64,000 nt of DNA, from positions 5,758-69,757 of the forward strand of contig DATKUO010000136.1 in NCBI GenBank assembly GCA_035530515.1, read 5' to 3'. The notes beneath the pieces are model-generated. The model ran no database searches and had not been told where the DNA came from. It worked only from the letters and a program-made list of their open reading frames with translations. A program made the translations under genes and the position numbers. Shown piece by piece: positions 15,172 to 35,088 of this stretch. Origin of the DNA: Bacteroidales bacterium (GTDB taxonomy: Bacteria > Bacteroidota > Bacteroidia > Bacteroidales > VadinHA17). Positions within the stretch are counted from its first letter, which is position 1. Each line of letters starts with the position of its first letter.

Positions 15172-15747
15172 TCATTCAGCTCTAGCAGAATGATGCAACA
15201 TAAGCAGGTTCTCTTCACTATTCCAAAGAGGAAGCAGGTCAGTTTGGTTTAGTTTCAGTAAATGAGTATCTGCTTCATGTGGATCAAGTACTATATAGCT
15301 GACTTTACGTCCGACTAGATTTTCAGCCTGTATAACTTTTCTGGCAAGATATTCCCGATCTATATCAGTACCAACCAGGATAAGATCTATTACCGGGCTA
15401 TCCTTTCCGCGAGCAAAATCACCTGTAAGGTAAACACATAATAGTTGGCCGATACGATGTATCACCTTATCAATTACACGATCAATACCAGTTTCTTTTA
15501 ATACTATATTATGAATATCTTTAAACAGAGGATGGTTCTGATTTGCCTGATAAATCTTCTTATTCCCATCTTTTAGAGAATGGAGCAATCCTGCATTTTC
15601 AAAGCGGTTGAGCTCAATTCGTATGGAGTTGGATGATTCACCAAATTCAGATTCAAGGCCGCGGAGATAAGCTTTTGTACGGCTGTTTAGAAAAAATTTC
15701 AGCAACAATTTGATCCTGGTCTGAGAAGTTATTAAAGTACCAATCAT
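15172..15747 (-). CDS. wHTH (ArsR-like) plus nucleotidyltransferase-like domain protein, putative regulator
   Basis: 191 aa. The N-terminus TRIKLLLKFFLNSRTKAYLRGLESEFGESSNSIRIELNRFENAGLL is wHTH-like. The C-terminus VYLTGDFARGKDSPVIDLILVG is NTase-like. Confidence 0.45.
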   Translation of the reverse strand: MIGTLITSQTRIKLLLKFFLNSRTKAYLRGLESEFGESSNSIRIELNRFENAGLLHSLKDGNKKIYQANQNHPLFKDIHNIVLKETGIDRVIDKVIHRIGQLLCVYLTGDFARGKDSPVIDLILVGTDIDREYLARKVIQAENLVGRKVSYIVLDPHEADTHLLKLNQTDLLPLWNSEENLLMLHHSARAE

Positions 15748-17698: not shown

Positions 17699-20530
17699 AT
17701 GAGAAAAATATTATCAATTTTATATTTACTAAGTTTACCTTTGGCATTAAATGCAGCATTGAATGGTGATGGCTTGACGTCAGGTACTGCATATTACGGG
17801 GTAATTAACAGTTCTATTTCATGGACTGCAGGAGGTTACCCTGGTGGAGTGATTTACGTAGGTCAAACTGGTACTGGCCTGAATGATTTAGAAGTTGGAT
17901 CTGGGGGTTCATTAACTATTGGCTCAGGTATCACAATAAAATTCTGCACTACTACTTCTGACCTATTAATTACCGGAACAGGAATCCTTAATGCCTCCGG
18001 GGTTACATTTACGAAGAACTTTCTAGCCAACTGGGGACATATATCCTTTCAGAGTATGACAACCACAAGTCCAGAATATTACCCCTCTGTTATAGACAAT
18101 TGTGTGATTGAGTATGGAAATAGTGGAACAGGTGGGTATGGTGGCGGAATAAACATATCCTTTACTTATGTCACTCTGTCAAATTCTATAATAAGGTATA
18201 ATACCGGTTACATTGGAGGAGGAATTACAATTAATCAAACCTCCTCAGGCTTTAGCCCTACTATAAACAATTGTTTGGTTCATGATAATACAGCAACTTA
18301 TGCAGGTGGAGGTATAATGGTTTGGAACAAGTCCGCTGCAAAGATTATTAACTGCATAGTAAGGAATAACACATGTACAAATACTGCAACCTATGGCGGA
18401 GGTGGCATATTTATTTATACAACCACAGGTGCAGCAAAAATTATAAACTGTACAATAGTAAATAATACAAGTTCTTTTAATGGTGATAATATTCATTTTC
18501 ACCAGGTTTCCGGGCTGAGTAATAATGCAAGTTTAATAAACTGTGTGGTTTGGAGCTCAAATAATAATTCAGTGTACATGCAGGGCACTCCTATAGCTGC
18601 CAACTTTATTAACTCAGCTGTTCAGAGAGTGTATGATGCTTCCTTAAATGAAATAACCATTGAAACAACATTCACAAGCAGTTTTAAGATAAACTCCACA
18701 AATGAAGGGTCAAGTCCAAGTGGTCCATATTTCACCAAAGATGATGGAACAGACTGGACTCTCCAATTTCGTTCACCCTGTCGCGACCTAGGATCAACAC
18801 CCAGTCCAACTGTACCTAACGATTATATCGGAAATCCCCGTATTGGACCTTATGATATCGGCGCTTTTGAAGTGCAATACAGCAGATGGAAAACAACCCC
18901 TACTGGAGATATTGCCACTTGGTCTGATCCACTTAACTGGGAACAAGGAATATATCCTGGAAGTGGAGGAACAGGTGATGTTGTTATCCCTCCTCTTGCT
19001 GGTTCCGCGGTAGCTCCAAATATTTCGGGCACAACAAACATAGCTTCAACCAAATATATGATTCTTGAACCCGGAGCAAAAGCGACATTTGGTACTCTTA
19101 CAAACAACGGAACCCTGAAACTTAATTCCACTTCTGCCGGCGATGCCTCTTTGATAGTTGACACTTATACAAAAGGCGGCGGGGCAACCGAAGAGATCCA
19201 ACTTTACCTTTCAGGTGGAGGGAGTGCTGTTCTTGGAGATTATAAATGGCATTATATATCAACTCCAGTTTCTTCTATCTCCACTGATGTATTTACAGCG
19301 GTTACTTTCGACCTGGCTCAGTTTGTCGAAAGTCGTCCTGCCCTTTCATTATTGCAGGGATGGGTTGCTTTTGATGGTTATGTTTATTCAACAGGAGAAT
19401 ATGAAGAAGAACCTTTCTACTTTCTTACCCCGGGCAAAGGGTATAATTTCTGGGATGGGGTAAATAATACGTTCACGTTTGGGGGGCAACTAAATACAGC
19501 AGATGTCGTTATGCCTATACCTTACAGTAATGAAATCCCAGATAAATTTGGATATAACCTCCTCGGAAACCCGTTTTCTTCAGGTTTGAACTGGGATGAT
19601 ATTGTGGACGGTGTTTACTTTACTTATCCTCCATCTACTAGCAAAGGTTTGTATTTTACAAAAGACAACACCCAGTGTACATATATCGGAGGTGTCGGTA
19701 CACCTGGTGGCACAACTGGTATCATTCCTCCAATGCAGGGATTTTTCACAAAGACATATTCTACCAATACAATTACCCTTCCTGCTGCAGCAAGAACCCA
19801 TGATGCTATTCCAGCAAGGTATAAAGGAAGTACTATAATCCCTCTTGTACGTCTTCTGTTAAAAAGAGACAGCGTAACATCAGATGAGACTGTTGTAAGA
19901 TTTGATGATGCGGCTAAGTCTTACCTCGATAATGATTTCGATGCTCCTAAGATGTTTATTTCAGATACAAGAACGTTAATATGGTCGTCCGGCGATGAAA
20001 CCAATTATGCCATAAATGGACTGCCATTCCCGGAAACACTTGTGGAAATACCAATCACAATTAATGTAACTAAAGATACAATACATACTATTTCTTCTAC
20101 CCAGCTACAGGGGCTGGATGATTATGATGTTACTCTCAGAGACAACTTAACCGGCTTACCACCAACTGACCTTAAAACAACACCTGTTATAACTTTTACT
20201 TCAGGTTTAGGTACAATAACCGACAGGTTTGTACTTAATATCAGCACATTAACCACCGGAACTGAATCTCCTGTTCATAAAAATAATATTTTCAATATAT
20301 TTACCGGTAACGGTCTTATTAACATCCAGACTATTGCAGATGATTGGGAAGGAAAAACAGGCTCTGTCAGGGTACTTGATCTTACAGGAAAAACTGTCTC
20401 CAACCTCCTGAATGCTGAGTTCCAAAAGAATTCTCTGACACAGGTTCAGGCTCCATCTGCAAAAGGATTGTATGTTGTAGAGATAAGAGCAGGGTTTATG
20501 AGATATGTGGGTAAGGTGGTAATAAAATAG
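17699..20530 (+). CDS. Secreted right-handed beta-helix protein with T9SS C-terminal sorting domain
   Basis: 943 aa with a signal peptide and repeated N.....GGG/NNT beta-helix rungs (res ~150-300). The C-terminal ~80 aa end ...GLYVVEIRAGFMRYVGKVVIK, typical of Por/T9SS CTDs. Confidence 0.75.
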   Translation: MRKILSILYLLSLPLALNAALNGDGLTSGTAYYGVINSSISWTAGGYPGGVIYVGQTGTGLNDLEVGSGGSLTIGSGITIKFCTTTSDLLITGTGILNASGVTFTKNFLANWGHISFQSMTTTSPEYYPSVIDNCVIEYGNSGTGGYGGGINISFTYVTLSNSIIRYNTGYIGGGITINQTSSGFSPTINNCLVHDNTATYAGGGIMVWNKSAAKIINCIVRNNTCTNTATYGGGGIFIYTTTGAAKIINCTIVNNTSSFNGDNIHFHQVSGLSNNASLINCVVWSSNNNSVYMQGTPIAANFINSAVQRVYDASLNEITIETTFTSSFKINSTNEGSSPSGPYFTKDDGTDWTLQFRSPCRDLGSTPSPTVPNDYIGNPRIGPYDIGAFEVQYSRWKTTPTGDIATWSDPLNWEQGIYPGSGGTGDVVIPPLAGSAVAPNISGTTNIASTKYMILEPGAKATFGTLTNNGTLKLNSTSAGDASLIVDTYTKGGGATEEIQLYLSGGGSAVLGDYKWHYISTPVSSISTDVFTAVTFDLAQFVESRPALSLLQGWVAFDGYVYSTGEYEEEPFYFLTPGKGYNFWDGVNNTFTFGGQLNTADVVMPIPYSNEIPDKFGYNLLGNPFSSGLNWDDIVDGVYFTYPPSTSKGLYFTKDNTQCTYIGGVGTPGGTTGIIPPMQGFFTKTYSTNTITLPAAARTHDAIPARYKGSTIIPLVRLLLKRDSVTSDETVVRFDDAAKSYLDNDFDAPKMFISDTRTLIWSSGDETNYAINGLPFPETLVEIPITINVTKDTIHTISSTQLQGLDDYDVTLRDNLTGLPPTDLKTTPVITFTSGLGTITDRFVLNISTLTTGTESPVHKNNIFNIFTGNGLINIQTIADDWEGKTGSVRVLDLTGKTVSNLLNAEFQKNSLTQVQAPSAKGLYVVEIRAGFMRYVGKVVIK

Positions 20531-20649
20531 GTGCAAGGGCACAAAGGCACAAAGGCATAACGGCTTTGAAAATTGTATATACACCCAGACCGTTGAGCCA
20601 TTGAGCTGTTGAGCCATTTATTAATATTTGTTAATTAATTTTTAAAAAG

Positions 20650-20657
20650 TATTTTTG
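20650..20657 (+). promoter_or_regulatory. Bacteroidota -7 promoter box TAnnTTTG for the small peptide gene
   Basis: tatttttg lies 39 nt upstream of the ATG at 20696. Confidence 0.45.
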
Positions 20658-20695
20658 TATCTTGATTGAAAATTATCTTCCTGCGCTTGAAGAGT

Positions 20696-20878
20696 ATGTA
20701 TAATAAAATATCATCCAAAAAATCATACATCAAACCTGAAGTTACCAGAGTTATTCTGGATAACTCAATTTCTTTGGTTATGATGACCGACATGCCCCCA
20801 AACCCGGTCCCCAGAGGCGATGGCAGCAAGAGTGCGGATCCTTTTGCCAGTCCGTTCGGGGATAAGCCGTTTGGGTAG
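20696..20878 (+). CDS. 60-aa peptide of unknown family (MYNKISSKKSYIKPEVTRVILDNSISLVMMTDMPPNPVPRGDGSKSADPFASPFGDKPFG)
   Basis: It has its own promoter box and a downstream hairpin. The start is set at the first ATG, whereas the track uses the upstream TTG at 20666. The C-terminal coding sequence recurs as remnants at 24956-24973 and 29485-29541. Confidence 0.5.
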   Translation: MYNKISSKKSYIKPEVTRVILDNSISLVMMTDMPPNPVPRGDGSKSADPFASPFGDKPFG

Positions 20879-21100
20879 GCAAAAGTTCAGGAAGTACTGT
20901 AAGTAATTAAATGAGTCTCTGTGAGGGGGCTCTTTCTTTATAAAAAGGTTGAAGGGAGTTGAAGGGTGTTTAAGAGGGTTGAGGTTCTTACCTGTTCGGT
21001 ATTTCAACTTCTTCAACCTTGTTCAACCTTCTTCAACATTTATTATGCTGTAAGCCGCAGGACCGAAAGACTGCATGGACCGCACGACCGAATGCCAGGG
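20879..21100 (+). repeat. R element copy 1, full context directly after the peptide gene
   Basis: It has a hairpin GAGTC..GGCTC (20913-20932) and a T/A run. A word hairpin follows, ggttgaagg words at 20947-20984 against ccttcaac words at 21004-21037. The tail is gaccg/gcatg words. Confidence 0.7.
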
Positions 21101-21130
21101 TCGGTAACAAAGCAACAGCAGTGAGTAATC

Positions 21131-21340
21131 CTAATCTATTAATTCAAACTGGTTCTTTACTTTAATATACCTGTTTGGTTTTACCGATTGTGGATATTCT
21201 ATTTTACTATAATCCTTATCAACAAATTCAATTATGGCACCATCAGATATACTTTCCATAATAGAAGGGTCGCGTGATATCTGTATGAGAAAATCAAATG
21301 TCAACCCAATATTTCTTTCTGTATATTCTTTATTATTCAT
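21131..21340 (-). CDS. Small protein, second gene of a 2-gene TA-like pair (family not assigned)
   Basis: 69 aa. It has a 4-nt overlap with the upstream 121-aa ORF. Confidence 0.4.
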   Translation of the reverse strand: MNNKEYTERNIGLTFDFLIQISRDPSIMESISDGAIIEFVDKDYSKIEYPQSVKPNRYIKVKNQFELID

Positions 21341-21702
21341 TTTCGCTTCTTCTTTAAATATTTCTCTTTATAAAACTCCCATCTATCCTTTAAATCCTGC
21401 TCTGCGTATAACAATGCATCTTCTATATTGTCGATCCCAATTGCTTTTTTTTCTTTTGAACCATTCGGATTCAGAACATCCCGATGAAAAAATCCGTGAG
21501 CACAATCATATCTTACAATCGCCACCCATTCACCAATCAATAATGTTTCGTACTGTACAACAATATCAGACACTCTTCCCTTTTCGATCGTGATTCTAAT
21601 TCTAAGTCGTTCATTATTTTGTTTATTTATAAACTTAAGAAATTCCTTTTCCACAGCTATCCGGTTAATCAGAAGAGAAAGTGTTTTTACAAAAGTAATC
21701 AA
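21337..21702 (-). CDS. Small protein with RYDxAHG..H motif (TumE/DUF6516-like?), first gene of a TA-like pair
   Basis: 121 aa with VAIVRYDCAHGFFHRDVLNP. There is no ATG, so the start is TTG and therefore uncertain. Confidence 0.35.
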   Translation of the reverse strand: MITFVKTLSLLINRIAVEKEFLKFINKQNNERLRIRITIEKGRVSDIVVQYETLLIGEWVAIVRYDCAHGFFHRDVLNPNGSKEKKAIGIDNIEDALLYAEQDLKDRWEFYKEKYLKKKRK

Positions 21703-21787
21703 TTTTGCAAATCAACCATTAATAACAGAAAATTTTGCCTTACACAAAACACGAATTAACTAGCAACTAATTTACATAATTCAGGAA

Positions 21788-21858
21788 AATCAGAGCCGGG
21801 AGGGGGCTCTTTTTGTTTTAGAACGGGCGCGGGGCGCACGGTGTGCGGTACGAGGGGA
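21788..21858 (+). repeat. R element copy 2 (short)
   Basis: aatcAGAGCCgggagggGGCTCTttttgtttta is followed by gggcgcggggcgcacggtgtgcggtacgagg words. Confidence 0.65.
21792..21819 (+). terminator. Hairpin plus T-run (R element core)
   Basis: The stem is AGAGCC/GGCTCT (6 bp, perfect), the loop is gggaggg, and ttttgtttt follows. Confidence 0.5.
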
Positions 21859-21942
21859 GTAGTATTTTGAATTTTCTTAAATAAACTCATTCTGGTTTAA
21901 TCCCGATTGTCTGATTATTGAACGAAAAGTACCTATAGAAAT

Positions 21943-22175
21943 TTCCGGGCAAAAACGTAAACTTAATAGAATCAGAGTCAGGGAGAGGGCTCTTTTTTTT
22001 TAAAAAATGGCGTCGGGCGTCAGGTATCGGGCATCTGGCACCATAAAAATAAATTCCTGACTCTTGAAACCAAGGGCATATATAATATAGTTCTTTCTGA
22101 TGCCTGATGCCTGATAGGCAAGGGCATGACCAGAAGACTGCACGACAGCATGACAGCGCGAAGTGCAAGACCCCA
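21943..22175 (+). repeat. R element copy 3 (long)
   Basis: A degraded peptide-3' remnant (ttccgggcaaaaacgtaaactt) comes first. Then follow the hairpin, T10/A6, and a word hairpin (22009-22042 against 22097-116). The tail is ggcaagggcatgacc...gcaagacc. Confidence 0.75.
21974..22001 (+). terminator. Hairpin plus T-run (R element core)
   Basis: The stem is AGAGTC/GGCTCT (one G-U), the loop is agggagag, and 10 T follow. Confidence 0.5.
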
Positions 22176-22237
22176 GGGCAGCAGGACAGTCTCATAAATG
22201 AACAATAGCCGCTTTTCAATATTTTTAAAAATAATTG

Positions 22238-22245
22238 TATATTTG
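22238..22245 (+). promoter_or_regulatory. Bacteroidota -7 promoter box
   Basis: tatatttg lies 22 nt upstream of the ATG at 22267. Confidence 0.45.
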
Positions 22246-22266
22246 ACTATAATTCAGATTGCCAAA

Positions 22267-22572
22267 ATGAATGAGATTCTGATAAACCGGTTAAACGATT
22301 TAAAGAGACTTTGTGAAATATACAAAGTCAGAACAATGTATGCTTTTGGTTCAGTCTGTACTGATAAATTCAATGAGAACAGCGATATTGACTTTTTGAT
22401 TTCTTTTGACAACCTCTCATTAGACCAATACACTGACAATTATTTTAATTTACATTACGAATTGCAGGATTTATTTGATCGTCGAATTGATTTGCTCACC
22501 GAAAACTCTCTTTCAAACCCCTTCTTTATCAAGGGTATTAATCAAACAAAACAGTTGATTTATGCAGCTTGA
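22267..22572 (+). CDS. mntA: MNT-type nucleotidyltransferase antitoxin (MntA-like)
   Basis: The GS..x..SD.D motif is present (AFGSVCTDKFNENSDIDFLI). The start is moved to the ATG at 22267, after the promoter box. Confidence 0.75.
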   Translation: MNEILINRLNDLKRLCEIYKVRTMYAFGSVCTDKFNENSDIDFLISFDNLSLDQYTDNYFNLHYELQDLFDRRIDLLTENSLSNPFFIKGINQTKQLIYAA

Positions 22573-22903
22573 AATACAAAAGCATCTGTTTGATATTAAA
22601 ACTTCAATAGATTCAATTAATGATTATCTTGGAGAGAATAGAGACTTTAACGAATATAAAATCAATAAACTATTAAAGCGAGCCATAGAGCGTGAATTAG
22701 AAATTATTGGAGAAGCAGCCGGACGTATCTTAAAAATAGATTCCAATTTCCCGATTGAAAATGCAAGAAAGATAGTTGATTTGCGAAATTGGGTAATTCA
22801 TGGTTACGACATAATTGATGATGTAATAATTTGGGGTATAATCTCTAAACAACTTCCGATTCTAAAAAATCAGGTTGAGATTTTATTAAAGGATGAAATA
22901 TAA
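22562..22903 (+). CDS. hepT: HepT/DUF86 HEPN-domain RNase toxin
   Basis: 113 aa with the Rx4HxY HEPN motif (RNWVIHGY). It overlaps the MNT gene by 11 nt. Confidence 0.75.
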   Translation: MQLEIQKHLFDIKTSIDSINDYLGENRDFNEYKINKLLKRAIERELEIIGEAAGRILKIDSNFPIENARKIVDLRNWVIHGYDIIDDVIIWGIISKQLPILKNQVEILLKDEI

Positions 22904-23018
22904 TAAGAGTCCTGGAGAGGGCTCTTTTTTTTTGGAAACGGGCGTACGGCGTGAGGCGCATGGTAATTTTAAATCGCCCCGAACCGCATGCCGCAAGCCG
23001 CATCCCCCACTGCAAGAC
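22904..23018 (+). repeat. R element copy 4
   Basis: It starts right after the hepT stop. The hairpin and T9 are followed by ggaaacgggcgtacggcgtgaggcgcatgg words and the tail ...ctgcaagac. Confidence 0.65.
22906..22933 (+). terminator. Hairpin plus T-run directly after hepT
   Basis: The stem is AGAGTC/GGCTCT (one G-U), the loop is ctggagag, and 9 T follow. Confidence 0.6.
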
Positions 23019-23031
23019 AGCTTTGTTCAGG

Positions 23032-23295
23032 TTAACAGCAATGCTCAAGTAAATTACCGGTATAAAGGCTATAAACCGGAAATATTAAATCCCAATTGCG
23101 ACCCCAAACCAAATTACCATTTTCGATTTTGAATTTTTTAAAATGGTTTATGTTATTGTACTTATCCCATTGCGGATGGGGATTTTCTTTTAAAAACGGT
23201 CCAAAATCTATAACCCTGAAAGTATTGTCGGAAAACTCTATTCTAACCTTGTAAGACTTAATGTGAGTAGCTCGGATAACTATAATCGTATTCAT
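23032..23295 (-). CDS. DUF2442-family small protein
   Basis: 87 aa: I..A.....Y.V.IEFSDN..RVIDF..FL. It is translationally coupled (ATGA) to the upstream DUF4160 gene. Confidence 0.6.
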   Translation of the reverse strand: MNTIIVIRATHIKSYKVRIEFSDNTFRVIDFGPFLKENPHPQWDKYNNINHFKKFKIENGNLVWGRNWDLIFPVYSLYTGNLLEHCC

Positions 23296-23599
23296 GGTTT
23301 TACTTTCTTTGTGATTTTTTCACTTTTGACTTTTTGCTTATAAACATAAAACTGAAGCCACTTGGTTACAATATGGTTGTGATACACTTTAAGAAAATTA
23401 ATGATATCCTGATGTTTATTGTCTGGTATTGGTTGTCGGCCTTTAACATTGGCAAATTCTAATGATATTAAAGCCCCATTGTCATAAATGAAAGTAACCT
23501 TGCTTTCATACTCGCCATACTGAACATGTACAGAATAGGTTCATGGTCATTGGCATAAAAGAGAAATATAAATCCAAAATACTCGTATATTTTTGGCAT
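23292..23599 (-). pseudogene. DUF4160-family gene with a frameshift
   Basis: MPKIYEYFGFIFLFYANDHEP continues only in another frame as ..VHVQYGEYESKVTFIYDNGALISLEFANVKGRQPIP... The length is 308 nt, which is not a multiple of 3. Confidence 0.6.
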
Positions 23600-23942
23600 G
23601 AGCTATAATTTTAAACAATCCTATTACCTAATATTCCTGTAAAAATTGGACTTAGCCTAATCGATCGGAAGCCTATTGTTGCAATAGCAAAGATAAAATT
23701 TATTTTTAAATAAGATTTTTGGAGAATTTTCTAATACGTACCGTAAAATAGCCAATTTGCCTGATGGCGGATGCGAGCTTATCCAATAAATCGGGATTCG
23801 GTTGGCTACACCGAGTTCACTTCGTTCGGTTTTTGTGTTAAGACAAGAAAGTGACTGGGGTGCAGGGCAGCGCCTCTTCAAAACGCTATGAAGGGAGGCG
23901 GGCTGCGTGAGGCGTCAGGCGTGGGGCGTCACATGTCATTGA

Positions 23943-24623
23943 CTAGCTCTCAAACAGAGAATTTTGTCCTCCTGTTAATAAATCAGATATTAATAATCGA
24001 AGTCGATTTTCAAATAAACCAATATCATGTCGGGTATCTACCCAGTGTATTTCTTCTAACTTATCTGAAGGAAAGCCATCAAGTATTTTTGATGCTTCTA
24101 TCGCGTTAATCCACAAATCCTTTTCTGCTGCTTCTTTCATAATTTCAGTCCAGCTAAAACTATAATTTAATGCAATATAAACTATGTCAACCACATCTTT
24201 AGCCGAATGCCGGCTTAATGCAGTAAGTTTATTAGACAGAATATTTGTAATTATATCTGTTTTGCTGAATAACGTGGTAAATATTGGAATTCCTGTCCGG
24301 TAGGGAATATCATTTACGAAATCTATTTTTAAAATACCTTCATTTTGATAAACGAATACCCTGGAAAAGCTATCGCTGGTAGCAGCAATTTCGATCTTTA
24401 TCTTTTCTTCTTTAATTGAATTGATAATTAATTCAACCTGATGTTCAAACCCGGAATTTTGATTTACAAAAAAATCTAAATAATCAGAGTACCGGTGATT
24501 TAAATATGCTCTGCTAAGAGTTGTTCCTCCGGTGAGATAAAAATCAACCGGAAGTTTTTCCATAATACGCAATACTTTATCCTGAATAGGGTATAGTATA
24601 TTTTGATAATAACTCTTTTGCAT
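23943..24623 (-). CDS. AbiEii/AbiGii-family nucleotidyltransferase toxin (DUF1814), short form
   Basis: 226 aa with FYLTGGTTLSRAYLNHRYSDYLDFF. Confidence 0.65.
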   Translation of the reverse strand: MQKSYYQNILYPIQDKVLRIMEKLPVDFYLTGGTTLSRAYLNHRYSDYLDFFVNQNSGFEHQVELIINSIKEEKIKIEIAATSDSFSRVFVYQNEGILKIDFVNDIPYRTGIPIFTTLFSKTDIITNILSNKLTALSRHSAKDVVDIVYIALNYSFSWTEIMKEAAEKDLWINAIEASKILDGFPSDKLEEIHWVDTRHDIGLFENRLRLLISDLLTGGQNSLFES

Positions 24624-24885
24624 CTTTATAATATGTTTGTCGCTGTTGAGGATAAAGTTTGCTGATTACGCTTTCTGAAAGCAGTAATGACAAATTATTA
24701 TAACCAAGAATCTCTATCAAATCATACCAGTTAAGGCTATTGAGCCCTCTGATCAATATCTGTTCGTCCTGAAATGCTTTATATGGATTTTTCATTATTT
24801 GTCTTATAAGTACCTGACGTTTTTCTGCCGGCAAATCCCAAAGCATTCCATTTAACTTTATTTCAATTGACTTTTCCATACTCAT
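24577..24885 (-). CDS. Small protein upstream of the AbiEii-like gene (putative antitoxin)
   Basis: 102 aa. It overlaps the downstream NTase ORF. The family was not recognised with confidence. Confidence 0.4.
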   Translation of the reverse strand: MSMEKSIEIKLNGMLWDLPAEKRQVLIRQIMKNPYKAFQDEQILIRGLNSLNWYDLIEILGYNNLSLLLSESVISKLYPQQRQTYYKDAKELLSKYTIPYSG

Positions 24886-24955
24886 GAATTATACAAAAGT
24901 ATGAATTTTTATATTACCCCTGTTATTATCAGAAAATTCTGATGGTAAAAGAAAT

Positions 24956-25095
24956 CTGAGTCCGTTCGGGTAAGAACATGAATTCGGGGATGTGAAGCAC
25001 TGGAGAGGGAGCTTTCTTGTTTAAAAAAATGGCGCCGGGCGTCAGACTATTTCACAGGGCAGGGCGTGTGGTTTGGTCGCCCCGCTTCGGCGGGA
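24956..25095 (+). repeat. R element copy 5
   Basis: The peptide-3' remnant ctgagtccgttcgggtaa (= ..SPFG*) comes first. A weak hairpin, tttcttgtttaaaaaaatggcgccgggcgtcag and ctatttcacagggcagggcgtgtggt follow. Confidence 0.6.
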
Positions 25096-25100
25096 ACCTT

Positions 25101-26140
25101 TTAGTAAAGAAACCCAAACATCCATAACGGAATTACATTTCCGTTTCCGAACTCTACGCTGTCTGATGCTATATAACGGTTGTCATATTTACTGCCTCTG
25201 GTTTTCTTTTCACCATTATTTTCATTTTCGACAACAAGTAATATTCCGTTATCAGTCAGGAGAGATCCATTAACAGGTATAGTCATCTTGTGGCTGTACG
25301 CAAGCTGATTTGCCAGAAAAGTCTCATTCACATTAATCCTGGAGGGATGTTTGCTTCCAATTGCAAATGGGATGTTTGTATTTTCAAGAAAGATTTTTGC
25401 AGGTTTTTGCATGCGGGAAATGCCATGGGCTTCGTGGTAGAGGTTCCTGATAAGCCCTGCATCGGCAAGGAACCCGAGATAGCTTATAATTGTATTACGT
25501 TCTAAATCCATAAGTCTGCTGAGCATTTTTATATTTGGAATGAATGGGGATTCCTCCGCAATGGCAAGGAGCATCTGTTTTATCTTATAACATTTCGCGA
25601 CATCAAATTTGCGCAGCAGGGGAAGTTCCGTATCGATAATTGTGTTAATGACCTCACTCAGCCGTATATAATATAGCTCTGGCACCTCTTTAAAAAACGG
25701 ATAGTAACCTGATCTGAGGTATCTTGAAAAATGTTGCAAGGGTTTCAGCTGAGCGGTAACGTCGCGCGAGATCCTGTGAAGATGATTTTAAGTGCCGGGA
25801 AATCGTCGTAGATATTTTTTATCTCCTGCGACCAATAGGGGTATTTGTGGACCTCATCAAGGAAAAGGATCTTCCCGCCCTGTTTTACGAACCTGTCAGT
25901 AAGGTCGGATAGTTTATTGCCTGAGAACCAAATATCATCAAGGCTTACATAAAGTACTGAAGGATCTGTTTCATAGTGTTTTTTGATATACTGAAGCATC
26001 AGAGTAGTTTTCCCTACACCACGGGCTCCCTTTATTCCGATGAGCCTTGCCTTCCAATTGATCTCATCAATGATCGTCCTGGTGAATCCGAGAGAAACGG
26101 GGATCAGCTTATTCCTGAATTTTTCAAAAATTCTTTCCAT
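25101..26140 (-). pseudogene. AAA ATPase (AAA_14/DUF4143-type, ATPase 2) disrupted by frameshifts and an internal deletion
   Basis: The N-terminal ORF (Walker A GARGVGKTT, Walker B LFLDEVH) ends ..IIFTGSRATLPLS*. DLARR is in a second frame and LKPLQHFSRYLRSGYYPFFKE in a third. The roughly 70 aa normally found between DLSRR and GYYPFF are missing. Confidence 0.65.
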
Positions 26141-26269
26141 TTTGCTTATTCATTTAAGCAAATATACTTATTTTTTGCTTATTCTACAAAGCATTTTAAT
26201 ATTTTCATGCCTCTTTTGTTAAAATATCTAACACATATTGATTATTATGTTAAGCAATTAAAATTATTT

Positions 26270-27142
26270 TTAGCTTAATTCCTCTACAATTCTTTCGACT
26301 GCAGTCCTGAAGAATTCTTTGCTCCAGATATCAAGTACCCGCACATCCGCTACAAAAGGAATAACCTCTTTCCTGGCTTCATCAATATTTAAAACATCTA
26401 TTGCATTCACAATAAGATCTTTCAATTTTACCAGAGATAAAGGCTTATCTCCTTCATAATGCCCCGATTGGCGCATTCGCTCCTCAAGGTGAGAAAGACT
26501 TAGTACAGGATAACCTGATGTATACCAAATAAAATCATACCAGTCACGTCCTTTAATACGGCTTTTCCATTTCCGGAATAAGAGAGCATGCACCTTACCG
26601 GCAAATAAAGATGGAAGGGTGTAAGAACGAACAGCAAACTGAACCGGGGTAAACACATATCTCATTTCAGTCCTGAAGCCCTGGGGAGGATTCGTATCAA
26701 CTTCCAGTTTCACTTTCAATATCGATTGCCGGTTTACCCCGGAAAGAATTTGTTCCGGCGCTTTAATTACGATCAGCTGATTATAGGTATTCCCCTTCAG
26801 AAATGCAGATTCAATATTAGTTGCAGCCGTTTTGTGTTTTACTTCGAAGGTTACCTCAAAGCCAAATGCTTCCAGTTCATTTTGCAACGCATTGGAATAT
26901 ATTGAAAAGTTAAACTCCTGAGATGGTTTTAATAAAGAAAAGTCAAGATCCTCCGAAAACCTGTCTAACCCATATAAAATCCGTAGTGATGTTCCTCCTA
27001 AGAAAGCTGCATGCTCAAAAAATTTGGCCCTCCAAAGGCCTAACAATGCCAGCGATTGCATTATTTCACGTACAGCATTTACCATTCCGGCTGTCGTTTT
27101 TGGCACCGGATCCGGAAGTATACTTTTTATCAGGCTATTCAT
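26270..27142 (-). CDS. abiEii: AbiEii/AbiGii-family nucleotidyltransferase toxin (type IV TA)
   Basis: LGGTSLRILYGLDRFSEDLDFSL is present. The start is moved to MNSLIK (ATG at 27142), giving an ATGA overlap with the abiEi stop. Confidence 0.8.
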   Translation of the reverse strand: MNSLIKSILPDPVPKTTAGMVNAVREIMQSLALLGLWRAKFFEHAAFLGGTSLRILYGLDRFSEDLDFSLLKPSQEFNFSIYSNALQNELEAFGFEVTFEVKHKTAATNIESAFLKGNTYNQLIVIKAPEQILSGVNRQSILKVKLEVDTNPPQGFRTEMRYVFTPVQFAVRSYTLPSLFAGKVHALLFRKWKSRIKGRDWYDFIWYTSGYPVLSLSHLEERMRQSGHYEGDKPLSLVKLKDLIVNAIDVLNIDEARKEVIPFVADVRVLDIWSKEFFRTAVERIVEELS

Positions 27143-27801
27143 AAACCTCCTCCAAACCGTTTTAGTAAATATTCCATAAGCCAAAGCACCTTACGTGTAG
27201 CATAAGCACGTTCAATAACACCAATTCTGTCAGTTCTGATCAAAGGTGCAAGTGTATCCTCATCAATCCGAAGATCAGCGAACAGATAGTCTGCGTATGA
27301 AGCTATTGAGGTTGGCCTAAAACGGCCGTCTGTCCATACCTTATCGGCAAGGGCTTTCAAGGGTTCAGCTATCAGCACACTGCCTCCGGGGTTATTATGC
27401 CTTACGAGGCAAGCCGAAAACCGCTTCCCGGTAAGCTGATTATATGAAAACCGGCCCACCGGTGTAAGGAATTCCCGTGAACGACCAGTAGCAATAGACG
27501 TAATTGTGGTAACCCGTTCCGGGATAAGACCGTACCAGGCCAAAGCATAGTCAATGCTAATGGCAGAGGGTCCATACACCAGATTTGCCAATGGTTCCAA
27601 CTCAAGGGAAGTCCGGCGCCAAACCTGTCCAAATACGTAAAGTCCTTTTCTTACACGGATAATATGCCCCCTCTTCAAAAGAACAGAAACCGTATCCCTG
27701 GGTTTACGATAATTTGAAAGAGTAAACATCAATTGAGAGTAGTCGAAAATTTCACCCTCAATTTTGTTTCGTATCTGCTCAATTGGTATCGTTTTTTGCA
27801 C
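27139..27801 (-). CDS. abiEi: AbiEi-family antitoxin / transcriptional regulator
   Basis: 220 aa with ...LLKRGHIIRVRKGLYVFG... It lies upstream of, and coupled to, the AbiEii gene. Confidence 0.75.
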   Translation of the reverse strand: MQKTIPIEQIRNKIEGEIFDYSQLMFTLSNYRKPRDTVSVLLKRGHIIRVRKGLYVFGQVWRRTSLELEPLANLVYGPSAISIDYALAWYGLIPERVTTITSIATGRSREFLTPVGRFSYNQLTGKRFSACLVRHNNPGGSVLIAEPLKALADKVWTDGRFRPTSIASYADYLFADLRIDEDTLAPLIRTDRIGVIERAYATRKVLWLMEYLLKRFGGGL

Positions 27802-27846
27802 CTTATGTCCAGCTTAATTGGACTTATCGTGCAAATATACGTGATT

Positions 27847-27977
27847 AAATAGAATCCGAGTCAGGGAGAGGGCTCTTTTTTGTTTAAAAAAAGGCGTCGG
27901 GCCACGGGCATCAGGCGTCAGGAACGGATAAGCAAGGGCATGACCGTATGACTGCATGACTGCATGACCGCAAGACC
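27847..27977 (+). repeat. R element copy 6
   Basis: aaatagaatccGAGTCagggagagGGCTCttttttgtttaaaaaaaggcgtcgggccacgggcatcaggcgtcagg is followed by the tail aagggcatgaccgtatgactgcatgactgcatgaccgcaagacc. Confidence 0.75.
27858..27885 (+). terminator. Hairpin plus T-run (R element core)
   Basis: The stem is GAGTC/GGCTC (one G-U), the loop is agggagag, and ttttttgttt follows. Confidence 0.45.
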
Positions 27978-28113
27978 AACAGACCTGCCTGGTTTTTTTT
28001 CATGGTATCTCTTTTCAATTGCCTTCGGACTTCGGCCAACAAAGTCGGCGAGCTCGCAAACGAAGTGAGCAAATCGTATCTGAAAAATATTTTTAAACAA
28101 GTAAATAATTATT

Positions 28114-28121
28114 TACCTTTG
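28114..28121 (+). promoter_or_regulatory. Bacteroidota -7 promoter box
   Basis: tacctttg lies 12 nt upstream of the ATG at 28133. Confidence 0.4.
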
Positions 28122-28132
28122 TACATAAATTC

Positions 28133-28183
28133 ATGAAGTGTGCTGAATTATGGAAAGGAAGATACACAAAGGTACAGGATTGA
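28133..28183 (+). pseudogene. hicA: Possible hicA toxin remnant (16 codons)
   Basis: MKCAELWKGRYTKVQD* begins like Bacteroidota HicA proteins (MKxxEL..). It sits 17 nt upstream of a HicB-like gene. Confidence 0.3.
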
Positions 28184-28200
28184 AATATAGATAGTCAGAT

Positions 28201-28644
28201 ATGGTTGTGAAAAAGAAGATTGTGGTTATTATTGAAAAGACTGATACGGGTTTCTCCGCCTTTACAACAGACTATTCTGTATATACAACGGGGTCTTCAA
28301 TGAATGAATTATTTTATAACATCAGGGAAGCATTTATTCTATATTTTGATGATGACAAATTTGATGATTCACGGATAATATATGAAATTGATTTTAGTCA
28401 ATTCTTTAAATATTATAAAGTTTTAAACTCCAAAGCTTTCGCAGGAAGGATTGGATTAAATCCAACATTATTATCCCAATATATAAGCGGTCGTAAAAAG
28501 CCTTCAGCATCACAAAGCCGAAGAATTCTTTATGGGATAAATAAGATAGGCCAGGAACTATCAGAAATGAATGTTATTTATGAAAGGAAGATGGAAGATC
28601 GGGTTAAGACTAAGAGAATTAGGGACTTAGGGACAGGGGCTTAG
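28201..28644 (+). CDS. hicB: HicB-family antitoxin with C-terminal HTH
   Basis: 147 aa. The N-terminus VVIIEKTDTGFSAFTTDYSVYTTGSSMNEL..I.EA has the HicB fold pattern. The C-terminus reads AGRIGLNPTLLSQYISGRKKPS. Confidence 0.65.
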   Translation: MVVKKKIVVIIEKTDTGFSAFTTDYSVYTTGSSMNELFYNIREAFILYFDDDKFDDSRIIYEIDFSQFFKYYKVLNSKAFAGRIGLNPTLLSQYISGRKKPSASQSRRILYGINKIGQELSEMNVIYERKMEDRVKTKRIRDLGTGA

Positions 28645-28838
28645 AGGAAGAAACGCATAAGCTCAGGCAAAACCCCAGGGACTTCAACAACTATATTAAA
28701 CAAAATCTTAGCTGGTCAAAACGGTTTGGCAAGATTAAGAGGAAAGACTTCTGGGATATTCTTGACGATAATACCATCCGGGCAGACAAAAATCTGGGTG
28801 AAAATACTATTGAAAAGTTCAAAACATTTGCTGAAACG

Positions 28839-29450
28839 ATGAAAAATAGTGAGGCAACTATGTTGCAAGAAATGACTGCCAACATATTTTTCAGGATTTG
28901 TGAAATATGTTATGATGCTAACGACTATTTTATTGGCAATGAAAAATCAATCTCTCCACGAGAAAAATATCTTAATATGGCTGATGGCCGTGATGCAGGT
29001 CTAAGAAATATTGATGGGGATTCTCCCAATGCATTTTATGAATGGTATCATAGTAAGGAAATATTGGGTGCCCATCCCTGGGAAATTTGCCGGGGTGGAA
29101 ATTCCACCCATATTTCGCTTTTTATTTCAGAAGTACAAAACAAATGGGCTATCCGTCTGGCAGGTTCAAGTATTGGCAGGGTTGAAGAAACCGTCAGAAT
29201 GGCTGTTGCCCTTTTTGAAAAGAAGATCCCTTTTATACTTCGCGATATGCAAGAAATTGTGAGTATGGTTACCGGTAATGACTTTATAGGGATTGTCCCT
29301 GATACTGTTTACCCCAGTTATTGCCACAGTTTATTCCCCAGAGAAGATAATATAATCGATTTTATGAATCTCGGATTTGATAAAAAAATGAATCCGAAAA
29401 TAATCGAAAAACCCCTGTGGTATCCGTTAGAAGAAATCTCAATGATTTAA
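28839..29450 (+). CDS. Hypothetical protein, probably 5'-truncated
   Basis: 203 aa from the first ATG. The same frame is open and protein-like back to 28621 (..DFNNYIKQNLSWSKRFGKIKRKDFWDILDDNTIRADKNLGENTIEKFKTFAET) with no ATG, and it overlaps the hicB end. Confidence 0.4.
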   Translation: MKNSEATMLQEMTANIFFRICEICYDANDYFIGNEKSISPREKYLNMADGRDAGLRNIDGDSPNAFYEWYHSKEILGAHPWEICRGGNSTHISLFISEVQNKWAIRLAGSSIGRVEETVRMAVALFEKKIPFILRDMQEIVSMVTGNDFIGIVPDTVYPSYCHSLFPREDNIIDFMNLGFDKKMNPKIIEKPLWYPLEEISMI

Positions 29451-29735
29451 AAAAGAACGTGCGACTGTACGGTGGTGCGGCAGCAACAAAGGAGCAGATG
29501 AGCCGTTTCAGGGTCCGTTTGGGGATGAGCCGTTCGGGTAAGAACGTGACTTAGCTAAATGGGAGTGCTGGAGGGCACTCTTTTTTGTTTAAAAAAAGGC
29601 GTCGGGCATCGGGCATCAGGCGTCAGGAACTGATAGGCAAGGGCACATATATAATATAGTTCTTCCTAAAGCCTGAAACCAGTCGCCTGTAGCCATTAAT
29701 AAATTTCCCTGAAACCTGTAGCCTGAAGCCTGAAT
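29451..29735 (+). repeat. R element copy 7 (long)
   Basis: It begins with a peptide-3' remnant translating ..GSNKGADEPFQGPFGDEPFG* (stop at 29539-41). Then come the hairpin, ttttttgtttaaaaaaaggcgtcgggcatcgggcatcaggcgtcagg, caagggcacatatataatatagttcttcc and gcctgaaRcc words. Confidence 0.75.
29563..29590 (+). terminator. Hairpin plus T-run (R element core, covarying stem)
   Basis: The stem is GAGTGC/GCACTC (6 bp, perfect) and the loop is tggagg. The stem sequence differs from other copies but pairing is kept. Confidence 0.5.
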
Positions 29736-29771
29736 AAATGCAATTTTGAATTAGTGCTGACTTGTGATTGA

Positions 29772-29807
29772 GGGATTGCGAGCCCCGCCCCGCGGGACGA
29801 AGCAATC
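29772..29807. repeat. Single degenerate unit of the palindromic repeat family
   Basis: ggattgcgag-CCCCGCcccGCGGG-acgaagcaatc. Confidence 0.55.
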
Positions 29808-29999
29808 TCCTGATCCCATCCACAGTATCTTGTATTATTTAATGGAGCAGTGCTCCAAACCCCGGTTCAGTAAATTTTACCTTATTTATTTCTACGCTAA
29901 CTACGAGAAAACTCTGAGACTGTGAATTAACTCCTGCCTTTCACCCAGGCCTTATTTCACAGGGCGAGGTGCGTGGTATGCGGCGCATACCTCAAGCCG

Positions 30000-31316
30000 C
30001 TAACAGCATGCTACCTCCGCAACAGAATATATAGGAAACGATCTGATTTGATCATATGATGAAAAGTTTTCGAGAGAAAAACGAATACCATAAGGTGTGT
30101 TTTTTTCTTTCAGGAAAAGATATAAACTCTGCATTGATCCTTTTGACCCGGATTTAACTTCAACCGGAATAATATCCTTATCTTTCTGAATAAGATAGTC
30201 TACCTCAGCGTTGCTGTTAAGAGCTTCCCGATGCCAATAAAACAGATCCATGTGATGGTAACATGATTGGGCCTTCAGCAATTCAAGACCAACAAACAAC
30301 TCTGCAATACTACCCTTATTAATAAGATTAAAACTTTCTTCAAATAACAGCTCCTGAATATTCAAACCCAACGACCGCTGAAAGAGACCGGTATCAAAAA
30401 TGAGCATTTTTCGCTTCTTAGAGTCAGATTCAGCTCCCGGAGGTATTCCGTTTGCTGACGAGTGAGTAACCGGAATTACAAGGCCTGCCATAATCAATAA
30501 ATCAAGCGCTTCTTTAATCTGCTTATGATTTGCCTCCGAAACCACTCCGGCATATTTAAATTTATTTCCAACTTGTTGAACAACTGAGTCAAAAACCTCA
30601 GCGATGCGTAACATTGGTACCCGTTTCCGGTATTTTGTAAAATCTGCTTTCAGTGAAATAATAAGATCATCCAATATCCGCTGGCATTCAGCCAGATTAT
30701 GACCCTGAACATAATAAGCAACTACTTCCGGCATTCCTCCAAGAATCAGGAATTTCTTAAAATATGCCAGAAGTTTCTGGTGAATGGCATCCTGTAACGG
30801 AAAATCAATTGATGCTCCCTTTTTTGCTTTTAAAAGGATGTGTTCTGCACATGCTGAAAGAAATTCGTTAAAAGAAAAAGGATAAACAAACATTGAACGG
30901 ATCCTGCCCACACCAAATGAAGGCAGATCTTCAAACACAAACTCAAGCAGAGAACCTGCCGCAATTAAATGCAATCCGGGTAATTTTTCATAGAAAAAGC
31001 GTAATGAAGATATTGCAGGCAAACAAGCCTGTATTTCATCGAAAAATAATAACGTCTTTCCTTCCTTAACAGGAATATTAAACATTATTGAGAGATTATC
31101 GCATAATGTCTGCGGCGATAAATCATCATTAAAAAGGCTATGCACTTTTTTCAGTTCCTCAAAATTGATTTCAAGGAAAAATTCAAAATGTTTTGAAAGT
31201 TCACGCACAGATGACGACTTACCAACCTGTCTGGCTCCTCTCAGAAGCAATGGTTTCCTTGACGGATCTCTGGTCCATGTTAAAAGCTCAGAATCTAATT
31301 CCCTTTTTAAATACAT
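30000..31316 (-). CDS. AAA+ ATPase with DUF4143-type C-terminal domain (ATPase 3)
   Basis: 438 aa with Walker A GARQVGKSS and Walker B LLFFDEIQ. The C-terminus has AEVDYLI...IPVEVKSG. Confidence 0.8.
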   Translation of the reverse strand: MYLKRELDSELLTWTRDPSRKPLLLRGARQVGKSSSVRELSKHFEFFLEINFEELKKVHSLFNDDLSPQTLCDNLSIMFNIPVKEGKTLLFFDEIQACLPAISSLRFFYEKLPGLHLIAAGSLLEFVFEDLPSFGVGRIRSMFVYPFSFNEFLSACAEHILLKAKKGASIDFPLQDAIHQKLLAYFKKFLILGGMPEVVAYYVQGHNLAECQRILDDLIISLKADFTKYRKRVPMLRIAEVFDSVVQQVGNKFKYAGVVSEANHKQIKEALDLLIMAGLVIPVTHSSANGIPPGAESDSKKRKMLIFDTGLFQRSLGLNIQELLFEESFNLINKGSIAELFVGLELLKAQSCYHHMDLFYWHREALNSNAEVDYLIQKDKDIIPVEVKSGSKGSMQSLYLFLKEKNTPYGIRFSLENFSSYDQIRSFPIYSVAEVACC

Positions 31317-31322
31317 TTTATG

Positions 31323-31405
31323 TTTTTCAAAAGCTATATCATAACATATTTCCCATTTTTCAAAAGCAATATTACAGCTATATTTCCATTTTTCAAAAGC
31401 AATAT
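31323..31405. repeat. Three spaced copies of (cca)tttttcaaaagcWatat, about 33-nt period, directly upstream of ATPase 3
   Basis: Copies lie at 31323-31339, 31353-31372 and 31386-31405, and the last two are identical over 20 nt. On the minus strand each reads ..gcttttgaaaaa.., a near match to the -7 box. Confidence 0.8.
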
Positions 31406-31508
31406 GCTAAAATGTGAGGAATGAGATTTAGAGGGTTCAAAGCGTAGTGGAGGGTTTTTAACCAGTATGCTGCGTGTTTCTACAAGCTCAACCTTTGTGC
31501 CTTGTACC

Positions 31509-32420
31509 TTAGATGCCAAACTCCCCGGTATCAATCCAATCCATCTCCAGGAGTGACCAGAAGTCGAGCGCCAGACGGTTAAGCACATATTCATACGGGA
31601 GCCATCCGTAACCCTTTTCGCCCCAGGTTTCACCCCAGGAGTTGCGTATCAATAATGCTCCTTTTGTCTCTTTGTCACACTTTGTATTTCTGATCTTCCG
31701 GTTGTCATCATAACCCATCGCAACAACCGCATGTCCCCATTGTGCAGATTCTCCCTTACAGGGATAGGGTATGTCGCCCGGCTTATCAGTGTCTTCAAAC
31801 GACTTAAAACCCCAGAAGCCGAACATGGACGGGATGCCTGCCTCAAGATATTTCTTTATGGAAGAGAGCACCTCCGCCGCTGGCAGGTCAGAGCCCTGCG
31901 GATCGTGACAGAAATATTTTACCGACTGGTAATTATCGGCCAATGAATAAACAAAGCTGCCGGGCTCCTTATCATAGTCCGCGACATTATATGGCCAGTA
32001 CTTTTCATCCGGCACTCCGCACAAAACCAGTGCACCCATTGTATCCCTGAGCCATGCGCCGGTGTCGCCGGTGACCTGCATAAGGTTTCTCGCGGCTTTA
32101 TACAAGAAGAGCCTTGAAGCTTCAATATGTTTTCCATACGCCCTTCTCTCAAAATACTCAACAATACCGACACCTGCATGGGCAGTACATGACCCGAGAC
32201 TAAGCTGATCTTCAACCGGAGAACACCACTCACTGAGATCAACCACAGTCTGCTGCTTGTGGTTTTTGGCTGTCAGACCCAGTCTTTTGTTAAAGACTTT
32301 AATTTCAGTGTTAGTGTTGGTATAATCGCGAAGGTCAGGCAGGGGAGAAAGCCATCCTGTTCCAACCTGATGGGAAAGACCGCCAATGCTTATTTTTTTG
32401 TTAAGTATGTTGTTATCCAT
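31509..32420 (-). CDS. Papain-family (C1) cysteine peptidase, no signal peptide
   Basis: 303 aa with catalytic Cys in DQLSLGSCTAHA, His in WGHAVVAMGYDD and Asn/Trp in IRNSWGETWGEKGYGWLPY. Confidence 0.8.
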   Translation of the reverse strand: MDNNILNKKISIGGLSHQVGTGWLSPLPDLRDYTNTNTEIKVFNKRLGLTAKNHKQQTVVDLSEWCSPVEDQLSLGSCTAHAGVGIVEYFERRAYGKHIEASRLFLYKAARNLMQVTGDTGAWLRDTMGALVLCGVPDEKYWPYNVADYDKEPGSFVYSLADNYQSVKYFCHDPQGSDLPAAEVLSSIKKYLEAGIPSMFGFWGFKSFEDTDKPGDIPYPCKGESAQWGHAVVAMGYDDNRKIRNTKCDKETKGALLIRNSWGETWGEKGYGWLPYEYVLNRLALDFWSLLEMDWIDTGEFGI

Positions 32421-32447
32421 AATATGACGTTTAAGATATTTCTTCCT

Positions 32448-35045: not shown

Positions 35046-35067
35046 TTTTATCAGTCTAAAGCGATTT

Positions 35068-35075: not shown

Positions 35076-35088
35076 ATTTATTTTTGCA

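Follow-up and report, generated by a model that had tools for sequence, protein, structure and literature searches.

The locus and its transcription signals

The window (the whole stretch of 64,000 nucleotides from a Bacteroidales bacterium that was analysed here) carries at 20696-20875 a 60-codon open reading frame, MYNKISSKKSYIKPEVTRVILDNSISLVMMTDMPPNPVPRGDGSKSADPFASPFGDKPFG, closed by a TAG stop codon at 20876-20878. It lies downstream of a gene for a T9SS cargo protein and is followed by the first of seven copies of a repeat, R. The features of the gene and its surroundings are as follows.

15172-15747, minus strand: gene for a 191-aa divergent conserved neighbour, a possible local regulator (conserved position in 39 loci)
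17699-20530, plus strand: gene for a 943-aa T9SS type-A cargo protein, the conserved upstream partner (Pfam/NCBIfam matches, AF2 model, fold matches)
20627-20657, plus strand: promoter of the peptide gene, with a -33 TTTG at 20627-20630 and a -7 box, TATTTTTG, at 20650-20657 (read directly)
20696-20878, plus strand: peptide gene, 60 amino acids plus stop codon (ORF read, dN/dS, superfamily conservation)
20913-20939, plus strand: intrinsic terminator of the peptide gene, forming the head of R copy 1 (fold: 8-bp stem and U-rich tail)
20940-21040, plus strand: long imperfect hairpin of GTTGAAGG and CCTTCAAC words, 3' of the terminator (fold)

The gene is monocistronic, with a promoter and a terminator of its own, and a search of the genome found a single full-length copy. 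The TAnnTTTG consensus is well established for Bacteroidetes sigma-A promoters; the box assigned to it in a preliminary description of this DNA read as described, and the -33 TTTG stands 19 nt upstream of it. Of 82 orthologous loci, 70 also have a TAnnTTTG box in the 130 nt upstream, in most cases at a distance of 58-66 nt from the codon for K9. An in-frame TTG at 20687 provides an alternative start, and many orthologs have been called from the equivalent position. At the other end of the gene, the placement of R copy 1 directly after it was borne out, the terminator being the head of that copy (nhmmer match at 20905-20948). The word hairpin beyond the terminator folds with -34.5 kcal/mol (z = -3.4).

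Hairpins and tandem arrays of G-rich words of 7-9 nt and their complements were observed in intergenic DNA at window 20520-20625, L004:7860-7930, L040:5850-5915 and L007:8180-8400; they trail genes throughout these genomes, with words that vary by site and a layout that is constant.

Conservation and coding status of the peptide gene

The ORF is a genuine gene, and it is strongly conserved among uncultured Bacteroidales. A word-indexed search returned at least 263 homologues, all unnamed, and a GTDB scan placed relatives in at least 106 species, nearly all labelled Bacteroidales or Bacteroidota and all represented by metagenome-assembled genomes. The reading frame was intact in each of the 80 loci read and every indel among 70 aligned orthologs preserved the frame; for these orthologs the median pN was 0.28 and the median pS 0.78 (saturated), and dN/dS was 0.16 across all of them and 0.10 when only pairs with dS below 1 were considered. 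Purifying selection spans the whole peptide, both halves being constrained, and the family consensus (KKxYIKPEIxRVxLDNSISLVMMTTxPPNPPPRGGGSKGxDxPFxSPFGDKPFG) contains 19 invariant columns. Pfam and NCBIfam scans with the peptide and its remote members gave no match even at E = 10.

The preliminary description had not recognised the peptide family, had asked for a homologue search and had named a dN/dS near 1 as the mark of an ORF that is fortuitous within a non-coding repeat. The family is indeed unnamed, but a connection to a PqqD/kinase maturation cluster has now emerged (see below). If the ORF were fortuitous within the R element, conservation would act at the DNA or RNA level; the repetition of its 3' end at the locus and the lack of a protein family match in these scans are compatible with this, but synonymous sites are saturated where amino acids are kept (dN/dS of about 0.1-0.16, clearly away from 1), the indels in all 70 aligned orthologs are frame-preserving, the profile matches are all small ORFs of like length, and invariant residues are broken in the repeat copies and intact in the gene. 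We reject this explanation on the dN/dS values and regard its probability as negligible. The claim of a stand-alone peptide gene thus holds, given the large family, the purifying selection, the promoter spacing kept in most orthologs and the gene's own terminator.

A profile search of 1.84 billion representatives widened the family to a superfamily of 287 clusters at 50% identity, all of about 45-75 aa, with an N-terminal module KKxYxKPxΦxxΦxΦDxxISLxMxS/T and a C-terminal module (S/N)PF. Across 141 of these clusters, conservation is strong over positions 8-37, gives way to variation at 38-48 and returns at 52-59. Y11 was found in 99% and P14 in 100% of the clusters, position 16 is I/V/L in 94%, and D22 and P34 are essentially invariant; conservation is also strong at K8, K9, I/V16, I/V19, L/I21, I25, S26, L27, M29, S/T31 and P37. 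At the C-terminus, S52-P53-F54 and F59 are conserved and an aromatic residue occurs within the last eight positions in 140 of the 141 clusters; the first residue of the (S/N)PF module is S in 71% and N in 18%.

The peptide has no signal sequence, and no S24/S26-type cleavage site is evident in it. Its Y-x-x-P-x-Φ element equals the YxxPxL leader motif of lasso-peptide precursors (motif as given in PMC10368454). The AF2 model of the monomer is extended and has no secondary structure, so that a fold search was not useful; a leader that docks by strand addition would be expected to show such an extended chain.

The T9SS cargo gene and the gene neighbourhood

The 943-aa protein consists of a signal peptide, a parallel beta-helix, several beta-sandwich domains and a Por_Secre_tail, and was modelled by AF2 with a pLDDT of 86.5. 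Fold comparison matched it to Rhombotarget A, to tailspikes and to a T9SS substrate CTD, matches that extend only to generic beta-helix and Ig-like folds, and a PDB sequence search with the protein found nothing. A homologue is encoded directly upstream of the peptide gene, on the same strand and with a gap of 17-860 nt, in 83 of 87 loci. Farther upstream, and divergent from the T9SS gene, the 191-aa protein is 65-93% identical in 39 loci; by reading of the sequence its N-terminal part is winged-helix-like and its C-terminal part nucleotidyltransferase-like, only a weak PaaX match and no family assignment was obtained, and it may act as a local regulator.

Downstream, the neighbouring gene varies. 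A CHU_C (T9SS type-B) gene follows in 30 loci, with PorP/SprF detected in 11 of those, and in other loci an UpxY/NusG-like gene and an OMP-like gene are directly downstream; in the window, the peptide gene is separated from the NusG gene by about 13.5 kb of toxin-antitoxin (TA) and ATPase cassettes. These data bear on a possible role of the ORF as a leader peptide (uORF) that controls termination at the next hairpin and hence the downstream gene. Such a role would suit a terminator placed after the ORF, proline runs (PPNPxP) that could stall ribosomes and an UpxY/NusG-like gene in the neighbourhood. However, the distance from the stop codon to the start of the hairpin is 20-35 nt, more than a ribosome terminating there would cover, the amino acids are conserved over the full length, the downstream gene may be CHU_C, NusG, OMP-like or a TA cassette, and remote members of the superfamily lie inside enzyme clusters. 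The hairpin geometry, the variable downstream gene and the full-length purifying selection lead us to reject an attenuator uORF, and we consider this role very unlikely.

R copies and the cassette array

Seven R heads, all on the plus strand, start at 20905, 21783, 21965, 22898, 24990, 27849 and 29553. No R head was found elsewhere in the 5.0-Mb genome, and a genome-wide REP-like repeat was rejected, R being confined to this locus. The six copies that follow the one at the peptide gene are listed below.

21783-21825, plus strand: R copy 2, terminator head only (nhmmer and repeat comparison)
21943-22007, plus strand: R copy 3, a weak stop-region remnant at 21943-21958 and a terminator head at 21965-22007
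22898-22940, plus strand: R copy 4, a terminator head starting at the HepT stop codon
24959-25028, plus strand: R copy 5, a remnant reading SPFG-stop at 24959-24973 and a degraded terminator head at 24990-25028
27849-27891, plus strand: R copy 6, a post-stop stretch and terminator head
29470-29596, plus strand: R copy 7, the last 20-23 codons at 29470/29479-29541 and a terminator head at 29553-29596

In other genomes the ortholog is followed by a terminator (TTAATAGRATYAGAG..loop..CTCTTTTTTGTTTAAA), and the R head equals this terminator. In copy 7, where the head has a 9-bp stem and U6, the remnant at 29479-29541 translates as GSNKGADEPFQGPFGDEPFG followed by a stop codon (tblastn E = 0.005), and similarity reaches back to about 29470 (R-W-C, from R-G-G); no start codon occurs in this frame, which a TGA closes at 29443. 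The preliminary description had likewise seen this part recur without the N-terminal part, but had placed its start 6 nt further on. The SPFG-stop of copy 5, which also reads as reported there, looks like a collapse between two CCGTTYGGG repeats. At 21943-21965 the comparison of TCCGGGCAAAAACGT with TTCGGGTAAGAACGT makes a coding remnant in copy 3 plausible, the similarity being too weak to be demonstrable by itself. Copies 2, 4 and 6 consist of the post-stop/terminator part only, with no coding remnant.

The distance from remnant to hairpin had been described as the same in each case. This is true of the remnants: from stop codon to hairpin it is about 20 nt in copies 5 and 7, and also in the orthologs at L004 and L040, but 35 nt in the intact gene of the window. 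Family-invariant residues are altered in the remnants (S52 to G or I, K57 to E), which marks the remnants as decaying copies and not as the source. Taken with the identity of R head and ortholog terminator and with the scars in other species, this supports reading the R copies as decaying, 5'-truncated duplicates of the 3' end of the gene and its terminator. The earlier proposal of one full-length unit with 5'-truncated derivatives stands to that extent; a coding part is present only in copies 5 and 7 and, weakly, in copy 3, and the word hairpins, which had been counted as part of the unit, differ between copies and so were not duplicated in the same way.

R-type scars recur in at least four other species (L004, L040, L050 and L058). 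At L040 the gene and its terminator are followed by an MNT/HepT cassette and then by a remnant, PFAIPFGDKPFG with its stop codon. The MNT/HepT pair of the window (22198-22903) and that of L040 (L040:6441-7140) share about 85% amino-acid identity by eye, and this shared cassette beside peptide genes that are only 65% identical suggests horizontal cassette exchange. Three R heads lie downstream of the peptide gene at L050:6200-8530. At L058:6170-12000 a 23S_rRNA_IVP-like gene, AAA ATPases and two MNT/HepT pairs are set apart by five R heads, and a remnant there reads DKPLG-stop; two of these heads look identical over about 50 nt. At L004 a remnant, FDDKPFG-stop, and an R head follow the CHU_C-PorP pair. 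The CHU_C and PorP/SprF genes of L004:8419-12660 are thus bracketed by the peptide terminator on one side and by a 3'-end remnant and R head on the other, and the pair has the look of a further cassette insertion. Similarity between R heads is higher within one genome than between genomes.

The array of accessory-gene cassettes is a growing one, with junctions marked by copies of the 3' end of the gene and its terminator. Each downstream entry of accessory cassettes (TA modules, ATPases) would have come with a duplication of the last codons and the terminator, giving rise to the R copies. Site-specific recombination in trans, integron-like capture or duplicative insertion could each have served as the route. 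No recombinase domain, integrase or IntI was detected in the 20 array ORFs scanned (21.1-38.7 kb), and an integrase-driven model is therefore unsupported, although such an enzyme could act in trans.

Four soil metagenome runs (X1-X4) were compared with window 20000-35500. One run assembles 20000-31568 as a single contig, and another gives short contigs that break at or close to R copies 3-7, with joints that skip 8-11 kb; joints of these contigs over 20.0-35.5 kb are ambiguous and have short sides, and the breaks are no more than suggestive of coexisting strains that differ in cassette content.

A PqqD/kinase cluster associated with the peptide

In other genomes, members of the superfamily lie beside or between genes for PqqD, an HPr-kinase-like kinase, an S24/S26 peptidase and an ABC exporter. 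At L095 the order is the end of a T9SS-CTD-like ORF, peptide, PqqD, HprK-like kinase and S24/S26 peptidase; at L102 and L106 it is T9SS protein, PqqD, peptide, kinase, S24 peptidase and ABC exporter; and at L101 it is PqqD, peptide, kinase, S24 peptidase and ABC exporter. The peptide gene is directly 3' of PqqD at L089, and at L103-L105 a profile match to the peptide lies between PqqD and the kinase, both placed by tblastn. In 10 genomes sampled from the order, the peptide match lies within about 0.7 kb of the kinase match on the same strand. Sensor or regulator genes were observed beside the linked clusters of two distant relatives, a LytTR response regulator and a large Y_Y_Y/PAS sensor kinase after the one at L106 (L106:9910-13999) and a Cache/GAF/PAS sensor before the one at L102 (L102:10222-13296), and these are a weak hint of peptide signalling.

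In the window's genome (G000) the enzymes are encoded on another contig, C139, in the order PqqD, HprK-like kinase, S24-like peptidase, ABC exporter and NTP_transf_5 (C139:112653-117455, equal to L100:7654-12456), and no peptide gene was found within this cluster. The PqqD closest to the window's gene is on C139; at L089, L095 and L101-L106 homologues of the peptide are encoded next to PqqD. The PqqD and kinase of C139 are 36% and 35% identical to those of L095, and the kinase retains the catalytic H...GxxGxGKS...(16)...DD motif, of which the H...GxxGxGKS...DD residues are needed in lasso-peptide kinases (PMC10368454). The gap of 240 nt between PqqD and kinase on C139, where relatives carry the peptide, was seen to hold a GC-rich palindromic insert. 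In G125, a genome of the same genus, peptide and enzyme cluster are split in the same way.

Kinase and peptide also co-occur. Of 201 genomes of the order, 29 carry the kinase and 23 the peptide superfamily, and the two are found together in 20; counter-cases are the three of 23 peptide-positive genomes without the kinase and four to nine kinase-positive genomes without the peptide. A kinase ortholog was present, at E of 1e-48 or better, in 38 of 40 genomes bearing an ortholog of the peptide, compared with the 29 of 201 for the order. For this co-occurrence Fisher p is about 1e-18 to 1e-23, with phylogeny ignored and positives spread over many families. Since peptide and enzymes are unlinked in the window's genome, their pairing there rests on homology and co-occurrence. 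The adjacency of peptide and T9SS cargo is older and more constant than that of peptide and enzymes, and a single break between the peptide gene and PqqD would turn an L095-like order into the layout of the window. No description of this enzyme combination or of the peptide family was found in the literature searched.

Interpretation of the peptide

Because of the cluster-linked homologues, the cluster on C139, the co-occurrence of the kinase and the YxxPxΦ motif, we think that the peptide is probably, though by no means certainly, a RiPP-type precursor of a PqqD-guided pathway, matured in trans in this genome. As in RiPP precursors, the ORF is short and without a signal peptide, with a conserved N-terminal region and a variable stretch at 38-48, and it contains a candidate leader motif of the kind recognised by PqqD-type RREs (YxxPxL).

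We infer the modification chemistry, the cleavage site and the export route of the product as follows. The N-terminal module, KK-x-Y-x-K-P-x-I/V...D-x-x-I-S-L-x-M-x-S/T, would serve as the leader and lie as an extended strand on the PqqD-type recognition protein. The HPr-kinase-like enzyme would then modify a hydroxyl side chain in the C-terminal (S/N)-P-F module, its target being uncertain because the serine of that module is not universal, and the NTP_transf_5 nucleotidyltransferase would probably modify the same module. The leader would be taken off by the S24/S26-type peptidase and the product exported by the ABC transporter. These enzymes would act in trans from C139, the peptide gene having stayed beside the gene for the T9SS-secreted beta-helix protein, which is found with the system in distant relatives too. 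This arrangement points to the surface protein as a partner or target of the mature peptide. RRE-assisted phosphorylation of precursors by HPr-kinase homologues has been established experimentally in lasso systems, and so has tailoring by nucleotidyltransferases (PMC8498205, PMC10368454).

Besides the unlinked enzymes, the lack of an evident cleavage site, the serine that is not universal and the counter-cases to co-occurrence, two observations speak against a precursor. The whole peptide, including the presumed core, is unusually conserved, which would also fit a structural or regulatory small protein; RiPP cores usually vary. The near-invariant adjacency to a T9SS cargo gene, moreover, is unexplained by the classical RiPP model. 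The main rival, which we consider unlikely, is an unmodified small protein that works directly with the T9SS beta-helix protein as an assembly or secretion factor, inhibitor or regulator, its link to PqqD and kinase being indirect, for instance through shared regulation. A T9SS homologue immediately upstream in 83 of 87 loci, the same adjacency in the remote members L090 (9-nt gap), L093 and L095, and conservation that covers the full length of the peptide and is higher in it (55-85%) than in the partner (29-56%), as would suit a protein-protein interface, all favour direct partnership. Yet the peptide has no signal sequence and the partner is exported via Sec and T9SS; at L102 and L106 PqqD stands between the T9SS gene and the peptide, with the kinase directly next; the kinase co-occurs in 38 of 40 genomes; and the YxxPxΦ motif fits RRE recognition.

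The likeness to lasso systems raises the further question of whether the peptide is itself a lasso precursor. The YxxPxΦ leader motif and the conserved S/T at position 31 would agree with this, as would PqqD, kinase, nucleotidyltransferase and ABC exporter, which are known accessories of lasso clusters (PMC8498205, PMC10368454). The clusters, however, contain neither a lasso cyclase (Asn-synthetase homologue) nor a B2 transglutaminase-like protease, an S24-type peptidase occupies the position of the protease, and past position 31 the peptide is rich in proline and without the Gly1 / Asp-Glu7-9 pattern. No PF13471 match exists anywhere in the window's genome. With no cyclase or B2 protease in the clusters and no PF13471 in the genome, the peptide is not a lasso peptide in our judgement, and we reject this assignment as extremely improbable.

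Setting these alternatives aside, the precursor model can be extended to a more speculative proposal, in which we place rather little confidence: an undescribed Bacteroidales system in which a linear peptide, modified by a PqqD-guided kinase and nucleotidyltransferase, is functionally coupled to a T9SS-secreted beta-helix surface protein, and in which the 3' end and terminator of its gene also serve as the primary attachment site of an array of TA and defence cassettes that is integron-like, has no integrase and recurs across species. Within such a system the peptide could be the ligand of the T9SS protein, a signal or a covalent decoration.

Significance

The peptide family is real and undescribed, and its members are most likely substrates of an undescribed peptide-modifying pathway. 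An anonymous 60-codon ORF has thereby become a defined family in more than 100 species with candidate partners in PqqD, a kinase, a nucleotidyltransferase, a peptidase and an exporter; as the enzyme set contains none of the known class-defining RiPP enzymes, the chemistry of the product could be new. The conserved pairing with a T9SS cargo would join the maturation of a peptide to the secretion of surface proteins in Bacteroidota, an unusual connection. Since every member is from an uncultured organism, the system has been beyond classical genetics so far. The gene for a tiny conserved protein also appears as a recurrent point of cassette entry that leaves terminator-bearing scars, and the R arrays offer a tractable case of cassette-array growth without a visible integrase.

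Comparison with known systems

The closest parallel is with lasso systems tailored by kinases and nucleotidyltransferases (paeninodin PadeK, BsfK/BsfB1, pseudomycoidin), which share with the present system a small precursor with a YxxPxL-type leader, a separate PqqD-type RRE, a nucleotidyltransferase gene, an ABC exporter and an HPr-kinase homologue with the same H/GxxGxGKS/DD motif, which there phosphorylates the linear precursor with the help of the RRE (PMC8498205, PMC10368454). They differ in that here there is no cyclase and no B2 protease, an S24/S26-type peptidase being found instead; the presumed core, rich in proline, has (S/N)PF at its end; the conserved neighbourhood includes a T9SS cargo gene; and in the window's genome the precursor is unlinked from its enzymes.

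A PqqD-family chaperone and an HprK-like protein are likewise combined in the HprK-related kinase A/B and SynChlorMet (ScmC/ScmD) systems (TIGR04352, TIGR04355, TIGR04248, TIGR04249), which are putative cassettes for peptide maturation. Scores against these models were far below the curated cut-offs (e.g. 41 bits versus 200), and the present system therefore belongs to none of those NCBIfam cassettes. Those systems are themselves uncharacterised and are not known to have a precursor of this type.

As for the T9SS partner, Rhombotarget A (PDB 9cdv) and phage tailspikes resemble it as right-handed parallel beta-helix surface proteins with a C-terminal sorting signal, but with a TM-score of only 0.40 on the target and 15-16% identity. 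The peptide in 9cdu appears to be a designed macrocycle (PMC12643943) and is therefore uninformative on a natural ligand.

The cassette array can be compared with two kinds of mobile region. Integron arrays and CALINs have hairpin repeats in one orientation at cassette boundaries, confined to a single locus, with a TA-rich content and repeats that are more alike within a genome, all of which is also true of the R copies; co-oriented structured repeats at cassette ends within one locus were found in the window, and similarly at L050 and L058. Unlike integrons, the array has no integrase or IntI among the ORFs scanned (no integron integrase domain in 20 ORFs of 21.1-38.7 kb), its cassette genes lie on both strands, and its repeat is a transcription terminator derived from a protein-coding gene. 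Islands inserted in the 3' ends of small conserved genes (tRNA, tmRNA) provide the second parallel: there, as here, partial duplicates of the gene's 3' end flank the insert.
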